Part shown: one piece after another, positions 3,242 to 46,193 of the stretch | Layout: every line of letters starts with the position of its first letter | Position numbering within the stretch: position 1 is the stretch's first letter | NCBI RefSeq assembly: GCF_030384885.1 | Contig: NZ_CP128613.1 | Direction: 5' to 3' (one strand) | DNA length: 64,000 nucleotides | Source of the DNA: Escherichia coli | Lineage (GTDB): Bacteria > Pseudomonadota > Gammaproteobacteria > Enterobacterales > Enterobacteriaceae | Notes under the pieces: generated by a model | What the model was told of the DNA's origin: nothing | What the model saw: only the letters and a program-made list of their open reading frames with translations | Databases searched by the model: none | Made by a program: the position numbers and the translations under genes

Positions 3242-5082
3242 TTATTGCGACTGCCGGACACGTTGACCACGGCAAAACAACCTTATTGCAGGCGATTACT
3301 GGCGTAAATGCCGACCGTCTGCCGGAAGAAAAAAAGCGCGGTATGACCATCGATCTCGGCTATGCCTACTGGCCGCAGTCAGATGGTCGCGTGCCTGGTT
3401 TTATCGACGTTCCCGGCCATGAAAAATTTCTTTCCAACATGCTGGCGGGCGTCGGGGGAATCGATCACGCGCTGTTGGTGGTGGCGTGCGATGACGGCGT
3501 GATGGCACAGACTCGTGAGCATCTGGCGATTTTGCAGCTGACCGGTAACCCGATGCTGACAGTGGCGCTGACCAAAGCCGATCGCGTGGACGAAGCGCGT
3601 GTTGATGAGGTTGAACGCCAGGTAAAGGAGGTGCTGCGGGAATACGGTTTTGCTGAGGCAAAACTGTTTATCACCGCAGCAACCGAAGGCCGGGGAATTG
3701 ATGCCCTGCGCGAGCATCTGCTTCAGTTACCAGAACGTGAACACGCCAGCCAACATAGCTTCCGCCTCGCTATCGACCGTGCTTTTACCGTAAAAGGTGC
3801 CGGGCTGGTCGTCACCGGTACGGCGTTAAGTGGGGAAGTGAAGGTAGGCGATTCACTCTGGCTGACTGGTGTAAATAAACCGATGCGCGTGCGTGCGCTA
3901 CATGCGCAAAATCAGCCAACAGAAACTGCCCATGCCGGGCAGCGTATCGCGCTTAACATCGCGGGTGATGCGGAAAAAGAGCAGATTAACCGTGGCGACT
4001 GGCTGCTTGCCGATGCGCCGCCGGAGCCGTTCACACGGGTGATTGTCGAGCTTCAAACCCATACACCGCTGACCCAGTGGCAGCCGCTGCATATTCACCA
4101 CGCCGCCAGCCACGTCACGGGACGCGTTTCGCTGCTGGAAGATAACCTTGCCGAGTTGGTGTTCGACACGCCGCTGTGGCTGGCAGATAACGATCGCTTA
4201 GTGCTACGCGATATCTCGGCCCGCAACACGCTGGCGGGGGCGCGCGTGGTGATGCTTAACCCGCCGCGTCGCGGTAAACGTAAGCCGGAATATCTGCAAT
4301 GGCTGGCGTCTCTTGCACAGGCGCAGAGCGATGCCGATGCGTTAGCTATTCATCTGGAACGCGGAGCGGTTAACCTTGCTGATTTCGCCTGGGCGCGCCA
4401 GCTCAACGGCGAAGGGATGCGTGAACTGCTGCAGCAACCGGGCTATATTCAGGCCGGTTATAGCTTGTTGAATGCGCCGGTTGCCGCTCGTTGGCAGCGT
4501 AAAATTCTCGATACCCTGGCGACTTATCATGAGCAGCATCGCGATGAACCAGGTCCTGGGCGCGAGCGTCTGCGGCGCATGGCGTTGCCAATGGAAGATG
4601 AAGCGCTGGTGCTGTTGCTGATTGAAAAGATGCGCGAAAGCGGCGACATCCTCAGTCATCACGGTTGGCTGCATCTGCCGGATCATAAAGCGGGATTCAG
4701 CGAAGAGCAGCAGGCTATCTGGCAAAAAGCGGAGCCGCTGTTTGGTGACGAGCCGTGGTGGGTGCGTGACCTGGCAAAAGAGACGGGAACCGACGAGCAG
4801 GCAATGCGTTTGACGCTACGCCAGGCGGCCCAACAGGGGATAATTACCGCGATCGTTAAAGATCGTTATTACCGTAACGATCGGATTGTCGAGTTTGCCA
4901 ATATGATCCGCGATCTCGATCAGGAATGTGGTTCAACCTGCGCGGCGGATTTCCGCGATCGCTTAGGTGTAGGCCGAAAGCTGGCAATTCAAATTCTGGA
5001 ATATTTTGACCGTATTGGCTTTACGCGTCGCCGTGGAAATGATCATTTATTGCGCGACGCATTATTATTTCCCGAAAAATAA
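3238..5082 (+). CDS. selB: Selenocysteine-specific translation elongation factor
   Basis: 614-aa ORF with N-terminal GTPase motif [11 protein letters not shown], recognised. Confidence 0.93.
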
Positions 5083-16792: not shown

Positions 16793-17488
16793 TTACTGCC
16801 CGTAATAGGCATTGGCCCCATGCTTACGCAGGTAGTGCTTATCCAGCAGTTCGTTTTGCATGGCAGGGAGCTGTGGTGCAAGCTGGCGCGAGAACAGGCC
16901 CATATAGGCGCACTCTTCCAGCACTACGGCATTATGCACCGCATCGGCGGCATTTTTTCCCCAGGCGAACGGGCCGTGAGAATGCACCAGTACCGCCGGG
17001 ATTTGTGCCGGACTCCTGCCACGTTCTTCGAAGGTTTCAATGATCACTTTGCCGGTCTGGTATTCATACTCGCCGTTAATCTCCGCTGCGGTCATCTGTC
17101 GCGTGCAGGGGATTGCGCCATAGAAATAATCGGCGTGAGTGGTGCCCCAGGCGGGGAGATCCAGCCCGGCCTGCGACCAGATGGTGGCGTGGCGCGAGTG
17201 GGTATGCACAATACCACCGATTTCGGCATAGCGACGGTAAAGCGCCAGATGCGTTGGCGTATCGGACGAGGGCTTTTTGCTACCTTCCACCACCTTGCCG
17301 CTGGCTATCTCAACCACCACCATATCGTCGGCGGTCATCACGTCGTACTCGACGCCGGAAGGTTTGATTACCATCCATTGCCGCGTTTCGTCTACCGCGC
17401 TGACATTGCCCCAGGTAAACGTCATCAGATGGTGAGCGGGAAGCGCCAGATTTGCCGCCAGCACGTCGGCTTTCAGTTGCTCTAACAT
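16793..17488 (-). CDS. sgbE: L-ribulose-5-phosphate 4-epimerase
   Basis: 231-aa ORF, AraD-like class II aldolase fold, recognised. Confidence 0.9.
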
Positions 17489-32586: not shown

Positions 32587-33768
32587 TCAAGAACGGCGTT
32601 TGGTTGCGGAGTCCATCCATACTGCCAGCAACAGAATCGCACCTTTAACGATATACTGCCAGAAGGTCGGTACATCCATCATACTCATGCCGTTATCCAG
32701 TGAAGCCATGATGAATGCCCCCATTACCGCTCCAGCCACGCTCCCGACGCCGCCTGCCAGACTGGTGCCGCCAATCACACATGCTGCAATTGCGTCCAGC
32801 TCGGCGATATTTCCCGCAGAAGGTGAACCAGCGCCAAGTCGAGAACTGAGGATTAATCCGGCGATGGCTACCATTAATCCGTTAATAGCGAACACGGCAA
32901 GTTTGGTGCGTTCAACGTTAATCCCGGAGAGCCGTGCTGCTTCCAGATTGCCGCCGATGGCATAAATGCGTCTTCCAAATGCCGTCCGCGTTGCCATAAA
33001 CATTCCGCCGAGTAACAGCAACGTCAGCAGCAGAACAGGAGTGGGAACGCCACGGTAATCATTCAAAAGCCAGATTGCGCCTAAGACGATAATCGCCGTT
33101 AATGCCTGGCGGCCGACAACTGCGGTAGAGGCCGGAGACTGCAAACCCAAAGCCTGACGGCGCATTCTTCCGCGCCATTGCCAGCCAACAAAAGCCATTA
33201 AGCCAAGCGCGCCAATGATGAAGCCGGTGCTTGCAGGTAGATAGCTTTGCCCAATTTGTGACATCGCGGCACTGGTGGGGGAAACCGTCGTGCCGTTGGT
33301 GATGCCAATGAGTATGCCGCGAAATGCCAACATGCCCGCAAGGGTGACAATAAATGAAGGGACTTTGCGGTACGCGACCCACCATCCGTTCCAGGCACCG
33401 AGAAGCAGTCCCAGAACCAACGTCACAATGATGGTAAGTGGCAAAGGCCAGCCTAGCCAGACGTCACAAATCGCCGCGACGCCACCTAATAGCCCCATCA
33501 TTGAGCCGACGGAAAGGTCGATTTCAGCAGAAATTATGACGAACACCATTCCTACCGCGAGGATGCCGGTAATCGCGGTCTGGCGTAACAGGTTGGAGAC
33601 GTTACGGGCGCTTAAGTAGGCACCATCGGTGGTCCAGGTAAAGAACAGCATGATTGCGATGATAGCTGCAATCATCACGAAGACCTGCAAATTCAGTGAC
33701 TTCAGCCCGGAAAAGCCACCGGATGTCGGTACGGCCAATTTCACTTCAGACGGATTGCTTTTCGACAT
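32587..33768 (-). CDS. xylH: D-xylose ABC transporter permease
   Basis: 393-aa membrane ORF, recognised. Confidence 0.92.
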
Positions 33769-35287
33769 GATGTTCGCTCCTCAATGCGGCTTCCATCACC
33801 TGCTCCTGAGTCAGGTTATGATTTATCAGGTTGGCTTTTAGTTTCCCTTCATGCATCACCAGTACACGATCGCTAAGGCCGAGCACTTCAGGTAATTCGG
33901 AAGAGATGACAATAACGGCAATACCCTGCTGGACGAGTTGGTTAATTAATTTGTAGATCTCGTATTTCGCGCCAATATCGATACCCCTGGTAGGTTCATC
34001 AAGAATGAGAATGCGCGGGTTGAGTAACAGACAGCGAGCGAGGATCGCTTTTTGCTGATTGCCGCCGCTCAAACGTCCAATAGCAAGGTCGGGGGACGAC
34101 GTTTTAACTTTGAGTTGCTGGATTGATTCCAGAATACATTTTTGCTCTGCCGCGTCATCAAGCTGGCTAATACCGCCGGTAAATTTATTGAGTGCGGCGA
34201 GGGTAATATTTTTACCAACCGCCATTACCGGAACGATGCCGTCGCGCTTTCTGTCTTCGGGTACCATCGCAATCCCCTGGGCGATGGCTTGCTGACAGTT
34301 ACGAATATCTACCTGTTTGCCATCAATATAAATTTTTCCTTCCCATTGTCCGGGCCACACGCCAAACAGGCACTGAATGGTCTCGGTACGTCCGGCACCA
34401 ACGAGTCCGGCAATACCCAGTATTTCGCCACGTTTCAGGGAAAACGAGACATCATTAACTCGTTTAATATGACGATTAACCGGATGCCATGCCGTCAGAT
34501 GTTCAATACGTAATATTTCATCTCCGGTGGTATGTGGTTCATTAGGGTAAAGCGCGGTTAACTCTCGCCCGACCATCATGGTGATAATATCGTCTTCACT
34601 CATTCCGGCAGCATCACGCGTACCAATGTGCTGACCGTCGCGAATAACGCAAATCGTATCGGAAATCGCTTTGACTTCGTTGAGCTTGTGCGAAATATAA
34701 ATACAGGCGATACCGTGCTGTTGTAGATCGCGAATAATATCCAGTAAAACCGACGTTTCCTGCTCAGTTAATGAGGCTGTCGGCTCATCGAGAATTAACA
34801 AGCGCACCTGTTTATTAAGTGCCTTAGCAATTTCAACCAGTTGTTGTTGCCCTAGCCCTAAATCGCCAACGCGGGTATCTGGTGAAATAAGTAAACTGAC
34901 CTGTGCGAGCAGCTTCTGACAGCGTAGCGTCATCAGATCATAGTCCATAATACCATTGTGGGTTATTTCGTTACCCAGGAAAATATTTTCCAGTACGGTC
35001 AATTCTTTCACCAGGGCCAATTCCTGGTGAATGATAGCGATACCTTTGCGTTCGGTATCGCGGATGTGACTCGCCTGAATCTCTTCTCCCGCAAAAATAA
35101 TGTCGCCTTCGTAGGAGCCATGGGGATAAATACCACACAGCACTTTCATCAGCGTTGATTTACCAGACCCATTTTCCCCGCAGAGTGAGACGATTTCGCC
35201 GGCATTCAACCGCAAGCTAACGTTATCAATTGCCTTCACACTGCCGAAGGTTTTGGTAATGTTCTTCATTTCAAGTAGATAAGGCAT
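33746..35287 (-). CDS. xylG: D-xylose ABC transporter ATP-binding protein
   Basis: Start at ATG 35287 ([12 protein letters not shown]) giving 513 aa; duplicated Walker A motifs. Confidence 0.92.
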
Positions 35288-43088: not shown

Positions 43089-45158
43089 ATGTCTGAGAAA
43101 ACTTTTCTGGTGGAAATCGGCACTGAAGAGCTGCCACCAAAAGCACTGCGCAGCCTGGCTGAGTCCTTTGCTGCGAACTTTACTGCGGAGCTGGATAACG
43201 CTGGCCTCGCACACGGCACCGTTCAATGGTTTGCTGCTCCGCGTCGTCTGGCGCTGAAAGTAGCTAACCTGGCGGAAGCGCAACCGGATCGTGAAATCGA
43301 AAAACGTGGCCCGGCAATTGCTCAGGCGTTCGATGCTGAAGGTAAACCGAGTAAAGCGGCAGAAGGTTGGGCGCGTGGTTGCGGTATTACCGTTGACCAG
43401 GCTGAGCGTCTGACTACCGATAAAGGCGAATGGCTGCTGTATCGCGCCCACGTGAAGGGCGAAAGCACTGAAGCACTGCTGCCGAATATGGTCGCCACTT
43501 CGCTGGCGAAGCTGCCGATCCCGAAACTGATGCGTTGGGGCGCAAGCGACGTGCACTTCGTGCGTCCGGTTCACACCGTGACCCTGCTGCTGGGCGACAA
43601 AGTCATTCCGGCAACCATTCTGGGCATTCAGTCCGATCGCGTGATTCGCGGCCACCGCTTTATGGGCGAGCCGGAATTTACTATCGACAATGCCGATCAG
43701 TATCCGGAAATTCTGCGCGAGCGCGGGAAAGTTATCGCCGATTACGAAGAACGTAAGGCGAAGATTAAAGCCGATGCCGAAGAAGCCGCGCGTAAGATTG
43801 GCGGTAACGCTGACTTAAGCGAAAGCCTGTTGGAAGAAGTCGCTTCGCTGGTGGAATGGCCGGTTGTGCTGACCGCAAAATTCGAAGAGAAATTCCTCGC
43901 GGTGCCGTCTGAAGCGCTGGTTTACACCATGAAAGGTGACCAGAAATACTTCCCGGTGTATGCGAACGACGGCAAACTGCTGCCGAACTTTATCTTCGTT
44001 GCCAATATCGAATCGAAAGATCCGCAGCAAATTATCTCTGGTAACGAGAAAGTCGTTCGTCCACGTCTGGCGGATGCCGAGTTCTTCTTCAACACCGACC
44101 GTAAAAAACGTCTGGAAGATAATCTGCCGCGCCTGCAAACCGTGTTGTTCCAGCAACAGCTGGGTACACTACGCGACAAAACTGACCGCATCCAGGCGCT
44201 GGCTGGCTGGATTGCTGAACAGATTGGCGCTGACGTTAACCACGCAACCCGTGCGGGCCTGCTGTCTAAGTGTGACCTGATGACTAACATGGTCTTCGAG
44301 TTCACCGACACTCAGGGCGTTATGGGTATGCACTACGCGCGTCACGATGGTGAAGCGGAAGATGTCGCAGTGGCGCTGAACGAGCAGTATCAGCCGCGCT
44401 TTGCCGGTGATGACCTGCCGTCTAACCCGGTAGCCTGTGCGCTGGCGATAGCTGACAAGATGGATACTCTGGCGGGTATCTTCGGTATCGGCCAGCATCC
44501 GAAAGGCGACAAAGACCCGTTTGCGTTGCGTCGTGCCGCACTTGGCGTGCTGCGTATTATCGTTGAGAAGAACCTCAATCTTGACCTGCAAACCCTGACC
44601 GAAGAAGCAGTGCGTCTGTATGGCGATAAGCTGACTAATGCCAACGTGGTTGATGATGTTATCGACTTTATGCTCGGTCGCTTCCGCGCCTGGTATCAGG
44701 ACGAAGGTTACACCGTTGACACCATCCAGGCGGTACTGGCGCGTCGTCCGACTCGTCCGGCTGATTTCGATGCCCGAATGAAAGCGGTATCGCACTTCCG
44801 TACCCTGGATGCAGCTGCAGCACTGGCGGCGGCGAACAAGCGTGTATCTAACATTCTGGCGAAATCTGACGAAGTGCTGAGCGACCGCGTGAATGCCTCT
44901 ACTCTGAAAGAGCCGGAAGAAATTAAACTGGCGATGCAGGTTGTGGTGCTACGTGACAAGCTAGAGCCGTACTTTGCTGAAGGTCGTTACCAGGATGCGC
45001 TGGTCGAACTGGCTGAGCTGCGTGAACCGGTTGATGCCTTCTTCGATAAAGTGATGGTCATGGTTGATGACAAAGAATTGCGAATCAACCGTCTTACCAT
45101 GCTGGAGAAACTGCGCGAATTATTCCTGCGAGTTGCGGATATTTCGCTGTTGCAGTAA
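43089..45158 (+). CDS. glyS: Glycine--tRNA ligase beta subunit
   Basis: 689-aa ORF, recognised. Confidence 0.95.
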
Positions 45159-45174
45159 TAACGTCGTTATTAAA

Positions 45175-45203
45175 AAGCCTGCCATCTGGCAGGCTTTTTT
45201 ATC
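45175..45203 (+). terminator. Rho-independent terminator of glyQS
   Basis: aaaaagcctgccatctggcaggctttttt hairpin plus T-run. Confidence 0.75.
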
Positions 45204-45419
45204 GCTAAATAATAGAGCAACCTTTAATAATCTTCTGATGAATAAAGATTGTCTCATATATTAATTTTATGAGATTTTTTTAGGATTATATCAAGGAGAA
45301 GAAAAGAACTTATTAAGCTAGAATAGCTGCGGGTGCTTGAGACTGTTTGTCTCAGGTATTCACCGAAAGGCAGACAGAGAAAAGCCCCACCTGACTATAA
45401 ATCAAAGTGAGGCTACCCT

Positions 45420-45632
45420 ATGCCTGAACACCATAAGGTTAGCCTCTTACTCGTTAGAAATCAACACAGGAGGCTGGGAATGCCGCAGAAATATAGATTA
45501 CTTTCTTTAATAGTGATTTGTTGCACGCTTTTATTTTTCACCTGGATGATAAGAGATTCACTGTGTGAATTGCATATTAAACAGGGGAGTTATGAGCTGG
45601 CGGCATTTTTAGCCTGCAATTTGAAAGAGTAA
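45420..45632 (+). CDS. hokA: Hok-family type I toxin locus: mokA reading frame (45420-45632) with nested hokA toxin ORF (45480-45632, 50 aa)
   Basis: MPQKYRLLSLIVICCTLLFFTWMIRDSLCELHIKQGSYELAAFLACNLKE is a Hok-family small TM toxin; AGGAGG RBS before the hok ATG; overlapping upstream mok frame. Confidence 0.8.
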   Translation: MPEHHKVSLLLVRNQHRRLGMPQKYRLLSLIVICCTLLFFTWMIRDSLCELHIKQGSYELAAFLACNLKE

Positions 45633-45820
45633 GAGTCTTCGGCGGGAAGTTATTCCCGCCTTTCTTACGGCGTTGCGCATTCTCATTGCACCCAAATTTA
45701 TTCTTCACAAAAATAATAATAGATTTTATTACGCGAACGATTATTTATTTCCTGAATAAACAAATAAAAAAATCCCCGCCATTTGGCAGGGATCTTAGAT
45801 TCTGTGCTTTTAAGCAGAGA

Positions 45821-46033
45821 TTACAGGCTGGTTACGTTACCAGCTGCCGGGCCTTTAGCGCCGCTTTCGATGGTGAAGGACACTTTCTGACCTTCGTCCA
45901 GAGATTTGTAACCATCGTTCTGGATAGCAGAGAAGTGTACGAACACGTCTTTAGAGCCATCGTCAGGAGTGATGAAGCCGAAGCCTTTGTCAGCGTTGAA
46001 CCATTTTACGATACCAGTCATTTTACCGGACAT
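45821..46033 (-). CDS. cspA: Major cold shock protein CspA
   Basis: 70-aa [24 protein letters not shown], recognised; terminator hairpin at about 45784-45812. Confidence 0.95.
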
Positions 46034-46193
46034 AGTGTATTACCTTTAATAATTAAGTGTGCCTTTCGGCGATATGGCGTGCTTTACAGATTTTGAAGCG
46101 TTAAAGGAATGTGCACTACGAGGGGTATCAACGATAACTCTTGAAGGGACTTGCCTTACTACACTGCTTTAATGGTCTGTACGTCAAACCGTT
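46034..46193 (-). promoter_or_regulatory. cspA long 5' untranslated leader (cold-box region) and promoter
   Basis: About 160 bp upstream of the cspA ATG; the long structured leader is known from the literature; boundaries approximate. Confidence 0.55.

Follow-up and report, generated by a model that had tools for sequence, protein, structure and literature searches.

The closest described relatives of the locus treated here are hok/sok of plasmid R1 and the hokA genes of Escherichia coli chromosomes. In R1, a weak promoter with a good -10 box is followed by tac, a leader hairpin, ucb, the Shine-Dalgarno (SD) region of mok (SDmok), mok with the Sok promoter inside it, hok, a post-stop hairpin and the fold-back inhibition element (fbi); mok of R1 is out of frame with hok. 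In E. coli K-12, hokA, hokC and hokE are described as inactivated by insertion elements (PMC12214031), disruption of sokA by the insertion sequence (IS) IS150 has been noted in MG1655 (PMC11551753), and an IS-free hokA has been reported in the adherent-invasive E. coli (AIEC) strain NRG857c (PMC7232551). hokA, its K-12 disruption by IS150 and IS-free copies in natural isolates are already documented. Here, the interval between glyS and cspA was analyzed in a stretch of 64,000 nucleotides of E. coli DNA (contig NZ_CP128613.1, assembly GCF_030384885.1; hereafter the window). This region very probably represents a chromosomal hokA/mokA/sokA type I toxin-antitoxin locus that is structurally complete and of the R1 type.

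In the window, glyS ends at 45158 and cspA occupies 45821–46033 on the minus strand (sequence and list of open reading frames, ORFs), and an A+T-rich spacer of about 219 bp separates the glyS terminator from the mokA ATG. The 50-amino-acid product of the nested toxin ORF matched the NCBIfam HokA equivalog NF007290 over its full length (1–50) with 126.5 bits against a cut-off of 89 (E 2.8e-37), while its score with the generic Hok subfamily of NCBIfam (53 bits) was under the cut-off of 73. The 70-amino-acid product matched the Pfam family HOK_GEF (PF01848; E 4.7e-22). Sharing the hokA frame, mokA encodes a Hok with an N-terminal extension. On the plus strand, Rfam RF01794 matched 45331–45482 with 123 bits against a gathering score of 59 (E 3e-29); this family is named "sok", yet the strand matched here is that of the hok mRNA leader. 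The translation of hokA contains C14, C29 and C46, the cysteines required for the toxicity of HokB (PMC12214031), plus an extra cysteine, C15.

A reading of the same DNA made from its letters alone (the sequence-only reading) had proposed a hokA/mokA locus with an intact mok frame, a nested hok ORF preceded by AGGAGG, about 215 bp between the glyS terminator and mok, no IS between glyS and cspA, and a Sok RNA on the minus strand around the mok start. The sequence and ORFs bore out this layout, the HokA, HOK_GEF and RF01794 matches agreed with the identity, and the interval aligned end to end with other IS-free E. coli intervals. The alignment with a characterized hok/sok locus which that reading had proposed as a check helped to place all elements of the R1 model in the locus, and positional homology to R1 together with the predicted fold agreed with the strand and position suggested for Sok. 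The elements were placed by pairwise alignment with an R1-like hok/sok copy (pMTY1886_IncFII), RNA folding and cross-species comparison, the last with 17 aligned intact mRNAs (eight E. coli alleles plus Pseudocitrobacter, Klebsiella, Kluyvera and two other Enterobacteriaceae). They are, with the evidence for each:

45319–45324, plus strand: putative hokA promoter, -10 box TAGAAT without a good -35 box; 7 nt upstream of the conserved leader start.
45331–45342, plus strand: inferred hokA mRNA 5' end and tac, GGGUGCUUGAGA; start of the RF01794 match, pairing with fbi in the minimum free energy (MFE) fold and the 17-sequence consensus fold.
45343–45377, plus strand: leader hairpin, CUGUUUGUCUC...GGCAGACAG; Rfam, MFE fold and consensus fold.
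45384–45394, plus strand: ucb, or anti-SD, GCCCCACCUGA; full-length and truncated folds and Rfam consensus structure.
45402–45413, plus strand: dcb, or SDmok region, UCAAAGUGAGGC, with GAGG at 45410–45413; MFE and consensus folds, helices 4 and 5.
45415–45439, plus strand: hairpin with the mok AUG in its 5' arm, a sokT-like target of the Sok 5' tail; helix 6, two pairs with compensatory changes.
45420–45632, plus strand: mokA frame, ATG start, 70 codons (70 amino acids); ORF list.
45444–45452 and 45627–45635, plus strand: helix 7, CUCUUACUC paired with GAGUAAGAG, the latter spanning the hok stop; a CG to UA compensatory change in 6 sequences.
45468–45473, plus strand: hokA SD, AGGAGG; sequence.
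45469–45486 and 45600–45617, plus strand: helix 9, hok SD/AUG paired with a 3' coding segment of hok; 16 pairs, two with compensatory changes.
45480–45632, plus strand: hokA toxin ORF, 50 amino acids, nested in the mokA frame; ORF list and family profiles.
45641–45660, plus strand: post-stop G+C hairpin, GGCGGGAA-GUUA-UUCCCGCC, then UUUCUU; helix 12, two pairs with 8 and 3 compensatory changes.
45681–45693, plus strand: fbi, UCUCAUUGCACCC, complementary to the mRNA 5' end; helix 1.
45376–45431, minus strand: predicted SokA RNA of about 55 nt, both ends likewise predicted, with its 5' tail over the mok AUG; positional homology to R1 Sok.
About 45429–45432, minus strand: predicted Sok start (G).
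45413–45384, minus strand: Sok terminator hairpin, then the U-tract UUUUCUCU.
45464–45459 and 45441–45436, minus strand: predicted Sok promoter inside mok, -35 box TTGATT, 17-bp spacer and -10 box TAACCT.

The order of these elements is that of R1, and the motifs GCUUGAG, AGCCCC and AGCCUCUUAC are common to the R1-like copy and the hokA locus. Both toxins belong to the Hok/gef fold family, with diverged sequences. Unlike in R1, mok is in frame with hok, fbi follows the post-stop hairpin after about 20 nt (about 30 nt in R1), no dedicated terminator stands after fbi, and the locus sits in a syntenic position on the chromosome and is inherited vertically, not carried on a plasmid.

The predicted fold of the full-length mRNA closed 5' to 3' through tac and fbi, with an MFE of -136.7 kcal/mol (z = -7.3). 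The tac–fbi helix had 11 pairs in the MFE and consensus folds, with 98.9% of cells paired and variation confined to G-U; no double compensatory change is possible there, because the 5' side is invariant. In this predicted fold ucb pairs with SDmok, whose GAGG lies 6–7 nt upstream of the mok ATG (45420). When the mRNA was truncated to 45331–45664, the predicted fold switched to a tac–ucb pairing with SDmok and the mok AUG unpaired, which is the structure encoded in the RF01794 consensus. The post-stop hairpin is likely the 3' end of the processed mRNA, as judged from its position in the R1 model. Upstream of the promoter, a block TTTTAGGA(A/T)T at 45281–45290, about 30–40 nt from the -10 box, was conserved across genera with non-conserved sequence in between; an UP-like element or a binding site would be possible explanations.

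Within mok, the predicted Sok -10 box TAACCT aligned with TATCCT of the R1-like plasmid copy, which we take to be the Sok -10 on the basis of the R1 promoter positions. The Sok -35 box and T1, A2 and T6 of the -10 box were invariant in the 17 loci, and the predicted SokA fold had z = -4.6. TAGAAT of the hokA promoter was likewise present in all loci compared across species.

When one genome per species was scanned with a 22-nt leader pattern, 15 loci were returned, 13 of which, all from Enterobacteriaceae, lay directly 3' of glyS, with cspA and yiaG next where the retrieved DNA was long enough. The glyS-linked loci came from E. albertii, Escherichia sp. E1V33, Pseudocitrobacter (two species), Kluyvera (two species), Klebsiella oxytoca, K. 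michiganensis, K. grimontii, Salmonella enterica subsp. arizonae and two other Enterobacteriaceae; in S. arizonae only a decayed, IS-interrupted remnant was found at the glyS–hokA position. The two other matches were unrelated and set aside, one being a chance match in a metagenome-assembled genome of Cytophagales and one a contamination contig. The latter, a 454-bp contig labeled Methylobacillus sp. MM3, corresponded to the K-12 hokA-leader/IS150 junction with one leader base different, and is by its sequence almost certainly E. coli K-12 contamination of that assembly. Wherever the coding part could be read (12 loci), mok started exactly 60 nt upstream of hok and in frame.

The consensus fold of the 17 loci had an architecture identical to the MFE fold of the window, and 97.5% of cells were standard pairs. 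Twelve pairs showed compensatory double changes, a number reached in none of 500 shuffles (slid controls gave 0–5), and these changes sat in the mok-AUG hairpin, the two long-range helices and the post-stop hairpin. Helices 4 and 5 at SDmok had no compensatory changes and one unpaired cell. Alignment columns 5–26 were conserved by construction because they were the search pattern, which partly imposed the conservation of the leader hairpin. The structural conservation across genera argues for continued selection on regulated expression. The synteny of glyS and hokA in other genera implies that the arrangement is older than the genus Escherichia and that the IS-free state is ancestral.

Comparison of the window with eight other IS-free E. 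coli intervals and E. coli C was used as a damage check. Only two private substitutions were found within the mRNA: A45456 (G in the others), located within the spacer of the Sok promoter, which turns the Gly at mok codon 13 into Arg, and G45523, which changes F15 of HokA to C. Neither falls within tac, fbi, ucb, SDmok or the mok ATG, and both spare the Sok hexamers and the conserved cysteines. All elements are present, in position and conserved across species, and the copy carries neither an IS nor a disabling mutation. The hok SD AGGAGG was also found in K-12 and strain S21EC, while E. coli C and five of six other IS-free alleles had GGGGG.

The hokA/sokA locus of E. coli C shares with the window the glyS–cspA position, the absence of an IS and the Sok/mok core allele GCTACCCTATGCCTGAAC, and is identical in tac, fbi, ucb, SDmok, the mok ATG and both Sok promoter boxes. 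The two differ at 20 of 662 positions, six of them within the mRNA; E. coli C has the hok SD GGGGG (AGGAGG in the window), F15 in HokA (C15 in the window), G at 45456 (A in the window), and A- where the window has GC at 45675–45676. Strain ATCC 8739 was considered as a proxy for E. coli C and rejected, as it carries a K-12-type IS150 remnant and a second IS3-family element. In E. coli Nord122, whose HokA protein is that of the window, about 390 bp are inserted in the hokA–cspA interval, and an ORF within them is annotated as a YidD-like membrane protein insertion efficiency factor.

In MG1655, a 1443-bp IS150 occupies 3720633–3722075, between glyS and hokA, so the IS150 copy that the sequence-only reading had placed beside K-12 hokA was confirmed by record and alignment. 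Two features of the window describe what this and related insertions affect:

45409–45447, no strand: 39 bp lost in K-12, containing the mok ATG, the Sok -10 box and the Sok 5' end.
45405–45407, no strand: unoccupied IS150 target AAG, duplicated in type-2 insertions and in the S. arizonae remnant.

By alignment, the K-12 element replaces the 39 bp without a target-site duplication and parts the hok promoter and leader from the coding part; mokA (b4647) and sokA (b4614) are annotated as pseudogenes in MG1655 because the start codon of mok and the -10 box and 5' end of Sok go with those 39 bp. The remainder of K-12 hokA (b4455), that is its ORF, post-stop hairpin, fbi, leader and promoter, is about 95–97% identical to the window, with the same hok SD, and its HokA has F15, E36 and K47. 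In a second class (type 2), IS150 follows …ATCAAAG and points the other way, with the 3-bp AAG cleanly duplicated and nothing deleted. Among 5425 complete E. coli genomes, the interval was uninterrupted in 2827 and the K-12-type junction was present in 1663. A 140-bp junction query gave 2589–2592 genomes for K-12-type and type 2 together, hence about 930 of type 2; the 1133 genomes returned by an 80-bp type-2 query were discarded as an over-count, because the three classes then sum above the number of genomes. The IS-free configuration is the commoner state in E. coli. The window matched strain 2013C-4282 at 100% identity over 14 kb, and the next best genomes reached 98.7%. The window is collinear across 45400–45450, with no IS150 end at 45407/45408 and no junction by 45448, and so does not have the IS150-disrupted state. 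The sequence-only reading had also suggested that the configuration may be ancestral, in keeping with the glyS–hokA(–cspA) synteny of other Escherichia, Pseudocitrobacter, Kluyvera and Klebsiella; inactivating changes in the sok promoter or hok elements, which it had named as grounds for refutation, were found neither among the IS-free E. coli intervals compared nor in the 17-locus alignment.

By analogy, the locus most likely works as hok/sok of plasmid R1 does. A weak constitutive promoter (-10 TAGAAT) would give a stable mRNA from near 45331, in which the 5' end (tac) would be clamped to fbi, the anti-SD would sequester the mok SD, and the hok SD/AUG would be paired with the 3' coding region. 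Slow 3' trimming to the post-stop hairpin would then remove fbi, and the freed 5' end would re-pair with ucb, exposing the mok ribosome-binding site and the mok-AUG hairpin. SokA (minus strand, about 45431 to 45376) would bind there and block translation of mok, and with it that of hok, because hok translation is presumably coupled to that of mok. Upon loss of SokA, mok and hok would be translated and the 50-amino-acid membrane peptide would depolarize the cell. For the source strain, we infer the transcription start and end points, the processing, the action of Sok and the toxicity.

Several observations weigh against this picture. According to a recent preprint, the hokA locus of E. coli C could neither bring about post-segregational killing nor be activated by rifampicin (bioRxiv 10.1101/2025.08.07.668861, citing Pedersen & Gerdes 1999). 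As this allele is near-identical to that of the window, the potential function suggested by the sequence-only reading has already been tested, and was reportedly negative for plasmid-type killing. The hok and Sok promoters both escaped a simple scan for the sigma-70 consensus, because each has one weak hexamer (the -35 box in the case of hok), and they were placed instead by positional homology to R1 and cross-species invariance. No canonical terminator follows directly after fbi in E. coli, unlike in the Klebsiella and Kluyvera loci. The A45456 and F15C substitutions each break one pair in a small local hairpin.

The strongest rival explanation, which falls somewhat short of an even chance, is that the locus is structurally intact and physiologically silent, a slowly decaying relic that does not kill under natural conditions. 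Besides the negative result for E. coli C, chromosomal hok genes have been suggested to be inactive (bioRxiv 10.1101/2025.08.07.668861; PMC12214031; PMC7232551), and the weak hok -35 box and the lack of a dedicated terminator after fbi point the same way. The locus is dispensable, since about 48% of E. coli genomes have an IS150-disrupted copy, and independent decay of hokA is seen in several species: in Escherichia sp. E1V33 one extra nucleotide in codon 8–9 shifts the hok frame, in Kluyvera genomosp. 3 a nonsense codon (TAG, codon 19) interrupts hok, and in S. arizonae mok/hok is deleted. Against a silent relic stand the position beside glyS, retained in at least five genera, the long-range helices maintained by compensatory base changes, and the invariant Sok -35 box and mok spacing; these conserved features point to continued purifying selection on regulated expression, and the K-12 HokA peptide is reported to be toxic on overexpression (bioRxiv 10.1101/2025.08.07.668861). 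The two readings are not mutually exclusive, as completeness of the R1 type concerns the identity of the locus and silence its activity.

Far less probable is a secondary origin of the IS-free state, in which IS150 once inserted and was later excised. Footprints of such events may persist, as suggested by the otherwise IS-free allele of E. coli O145 RM8843-C1, in which an extra 8-nt TGTACTGC, equal to an IS150 terminus, was found exactly at the insertion hot spot (equivalent to about 45409 of the window) and may be a footprint of excision or recombination. Across 45400–45450, however, the window has neither a footprint nor a duplicated AAG and is identical to E. coli C, E. albertii and Escherichia sp. 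E1V33, and an excision footprint in the window was rejected on these grounds. That the ORFs and hairpins arose by chance in an A+T-rich stretch between genes has only the small size of the ORFs in its favor and can practically be dismissed, being refuted by the HokA, HOK_GEF and Rfam matches (profile E values of 1e-22 to 1e-37, Rfam E 3e-29), a fold z near -7 and the conservation across genera.

Insertions of the IS150 group (IS3 family) were found at one exact point after …ATCAAAG, within the Sok terminator and just 5' of SDmok (45405–45408). In the retrieved loci, the junctions were at 2059/2060 and 3502 for E. coli type 2, at 4248 and 6869 for S. arizonae and at 1557/1558 for K-12, where the insertion has the orientation opposite to type 2 and the 39-bp deletion. 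The S. arizonae element was a diverged, internally deleted IS150-like element, with about 58% translated similarity to IS150 and the same AAG on both sides, and in K. grimontii an IS3-family end was found at the same junction, at the start of the retrieved locus. In ATCC 8739 (retrieved locus 32786–34021), only the last 41 bp of IS150 were left at the K-12-type junction, and a different IS3-family element of about 1.2 kb, with ends TGGACTGACCCC…GGGGTCAGTCCA, abutted the left flank …ATCAAAGTT. The sequence 3' of the insertion site, TGAGGCTACCC, loosely resembles the IS150 left end, TGTACTGCACCC.

Laboratory evolution has given IS150 insertions in the hokC leader of REL606, at 16,972 (PMC5419217). 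The insertions at 16,972 and 16,989 mapped 71 and 88 nt upstream of the hokC ATG, and the former aligned with the hokA hot spot, just 5' of SDmok (…CAACC|CGAGGCCCCC against …CAAAG|TGAGGCTACCC). Only the hokC insertions were used, as the coordinates of the PeerJ table for the hokE and mokB insertions missed hok loci. The laboratory insertions in hokC suggest a target preference and not selection alone. A candidate sequence-specific landing site of 10–20 bp around the Sok terminator and SDmok, …ATCAAAG|TGAGGC…, appears to have received independent insertions in E. coli (in two orientations), S. arizonae, K. grimontii and the paralogous hokC. The attraction of IS150 to hok/sok loci is known in outline (PMC11551753, PMC5419217); in the literature read, no statement was found on the exactness of the insertion site across genera.

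A broader interpretation is possible, although rather doubtful. In it, glyS-linked hokA would be a type I toxin-antitoxin system of long standing on the chromosome, passed on vertically, whose regulated expression is still selected in several enterobacterial genera, and which carries a landing site for IS150-group elements at the Sok terminator/SDmok; the IS-free and IS-occupied states would then represent a recurrent on/off switch of the toxin through IS target choice, and not random decay. As a discovery the locus has little weight, since it is of a known kind and in the commoner, ancestral configuration. The window provides a fully annotated intact reference copy with its regulatory elements mapped to coordinates, and hokA, mokA and sokA merit joint annotation in the source strain. 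As a natural variant (hok SD AGGAGG, HokA F15C), it offers a contrast with the E. coli C locus, and the conservation across genera and the recurrent insertion of IS150 at one site bear modestly on the function of chromosomal hok genes and on their frequent carriage of IS elements.

The remaining features of the interval belong to the neighboring genes or to the opposite strand:

45177–45200, plus strand: glyS intrinsic terminator, GCCTGCC-ATCT-GGCAGGC and a T-run; sequence, with sub-threshold terminator-like Rfam matches on both strands.
45609–45680, minus strand: ysaE-like ORF of 23 codons, antisense to the hokA 3' end; annotated in K-12 (ysaE) and in the source strain (hypothetical).
45769–45796, minus strand: cspA terminator, the sole strong hairpin downstream of fbi; Rfam and hairpin scan.

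The glyS terminator is symmetric because an A-run flanks the hairpin as well as the T-run. Rfam placed a complete cspA thermoregulator mRNA at 45766–46193, and the cspA terminator could end hokA transcripts too. The ysaE-like ORF had no NCBIfam match in the family search; it covers the post-stop hairpin, and its boundary is the base next to fbi (45681).

The segment containing the Sok target and mok start (45414–45428) occurred in E. coli as two alleles, GCTACCCTATGCCTGAAC and GCCCCTCTATGCATAGAC, with 6–7 changes in about 15 nt, and GCCCCTCTATGCATAGAC was identical to the Pseudocitrobacter sequence; these diverged alleles could reflect an old polymorphism, gene conversion or transfer. In the type strain of E. 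albertii, a break was found at the equivalent of 45469/45470 (…AACACAG|TGTATGGGT), where the retrieved sequence stops. Pseudocitrobacter faecalis carried three complete hokA-type loci in tandem between glyS and cspA, each with a leader, mok, hok and fbi, at a spacing of about 453 bp.

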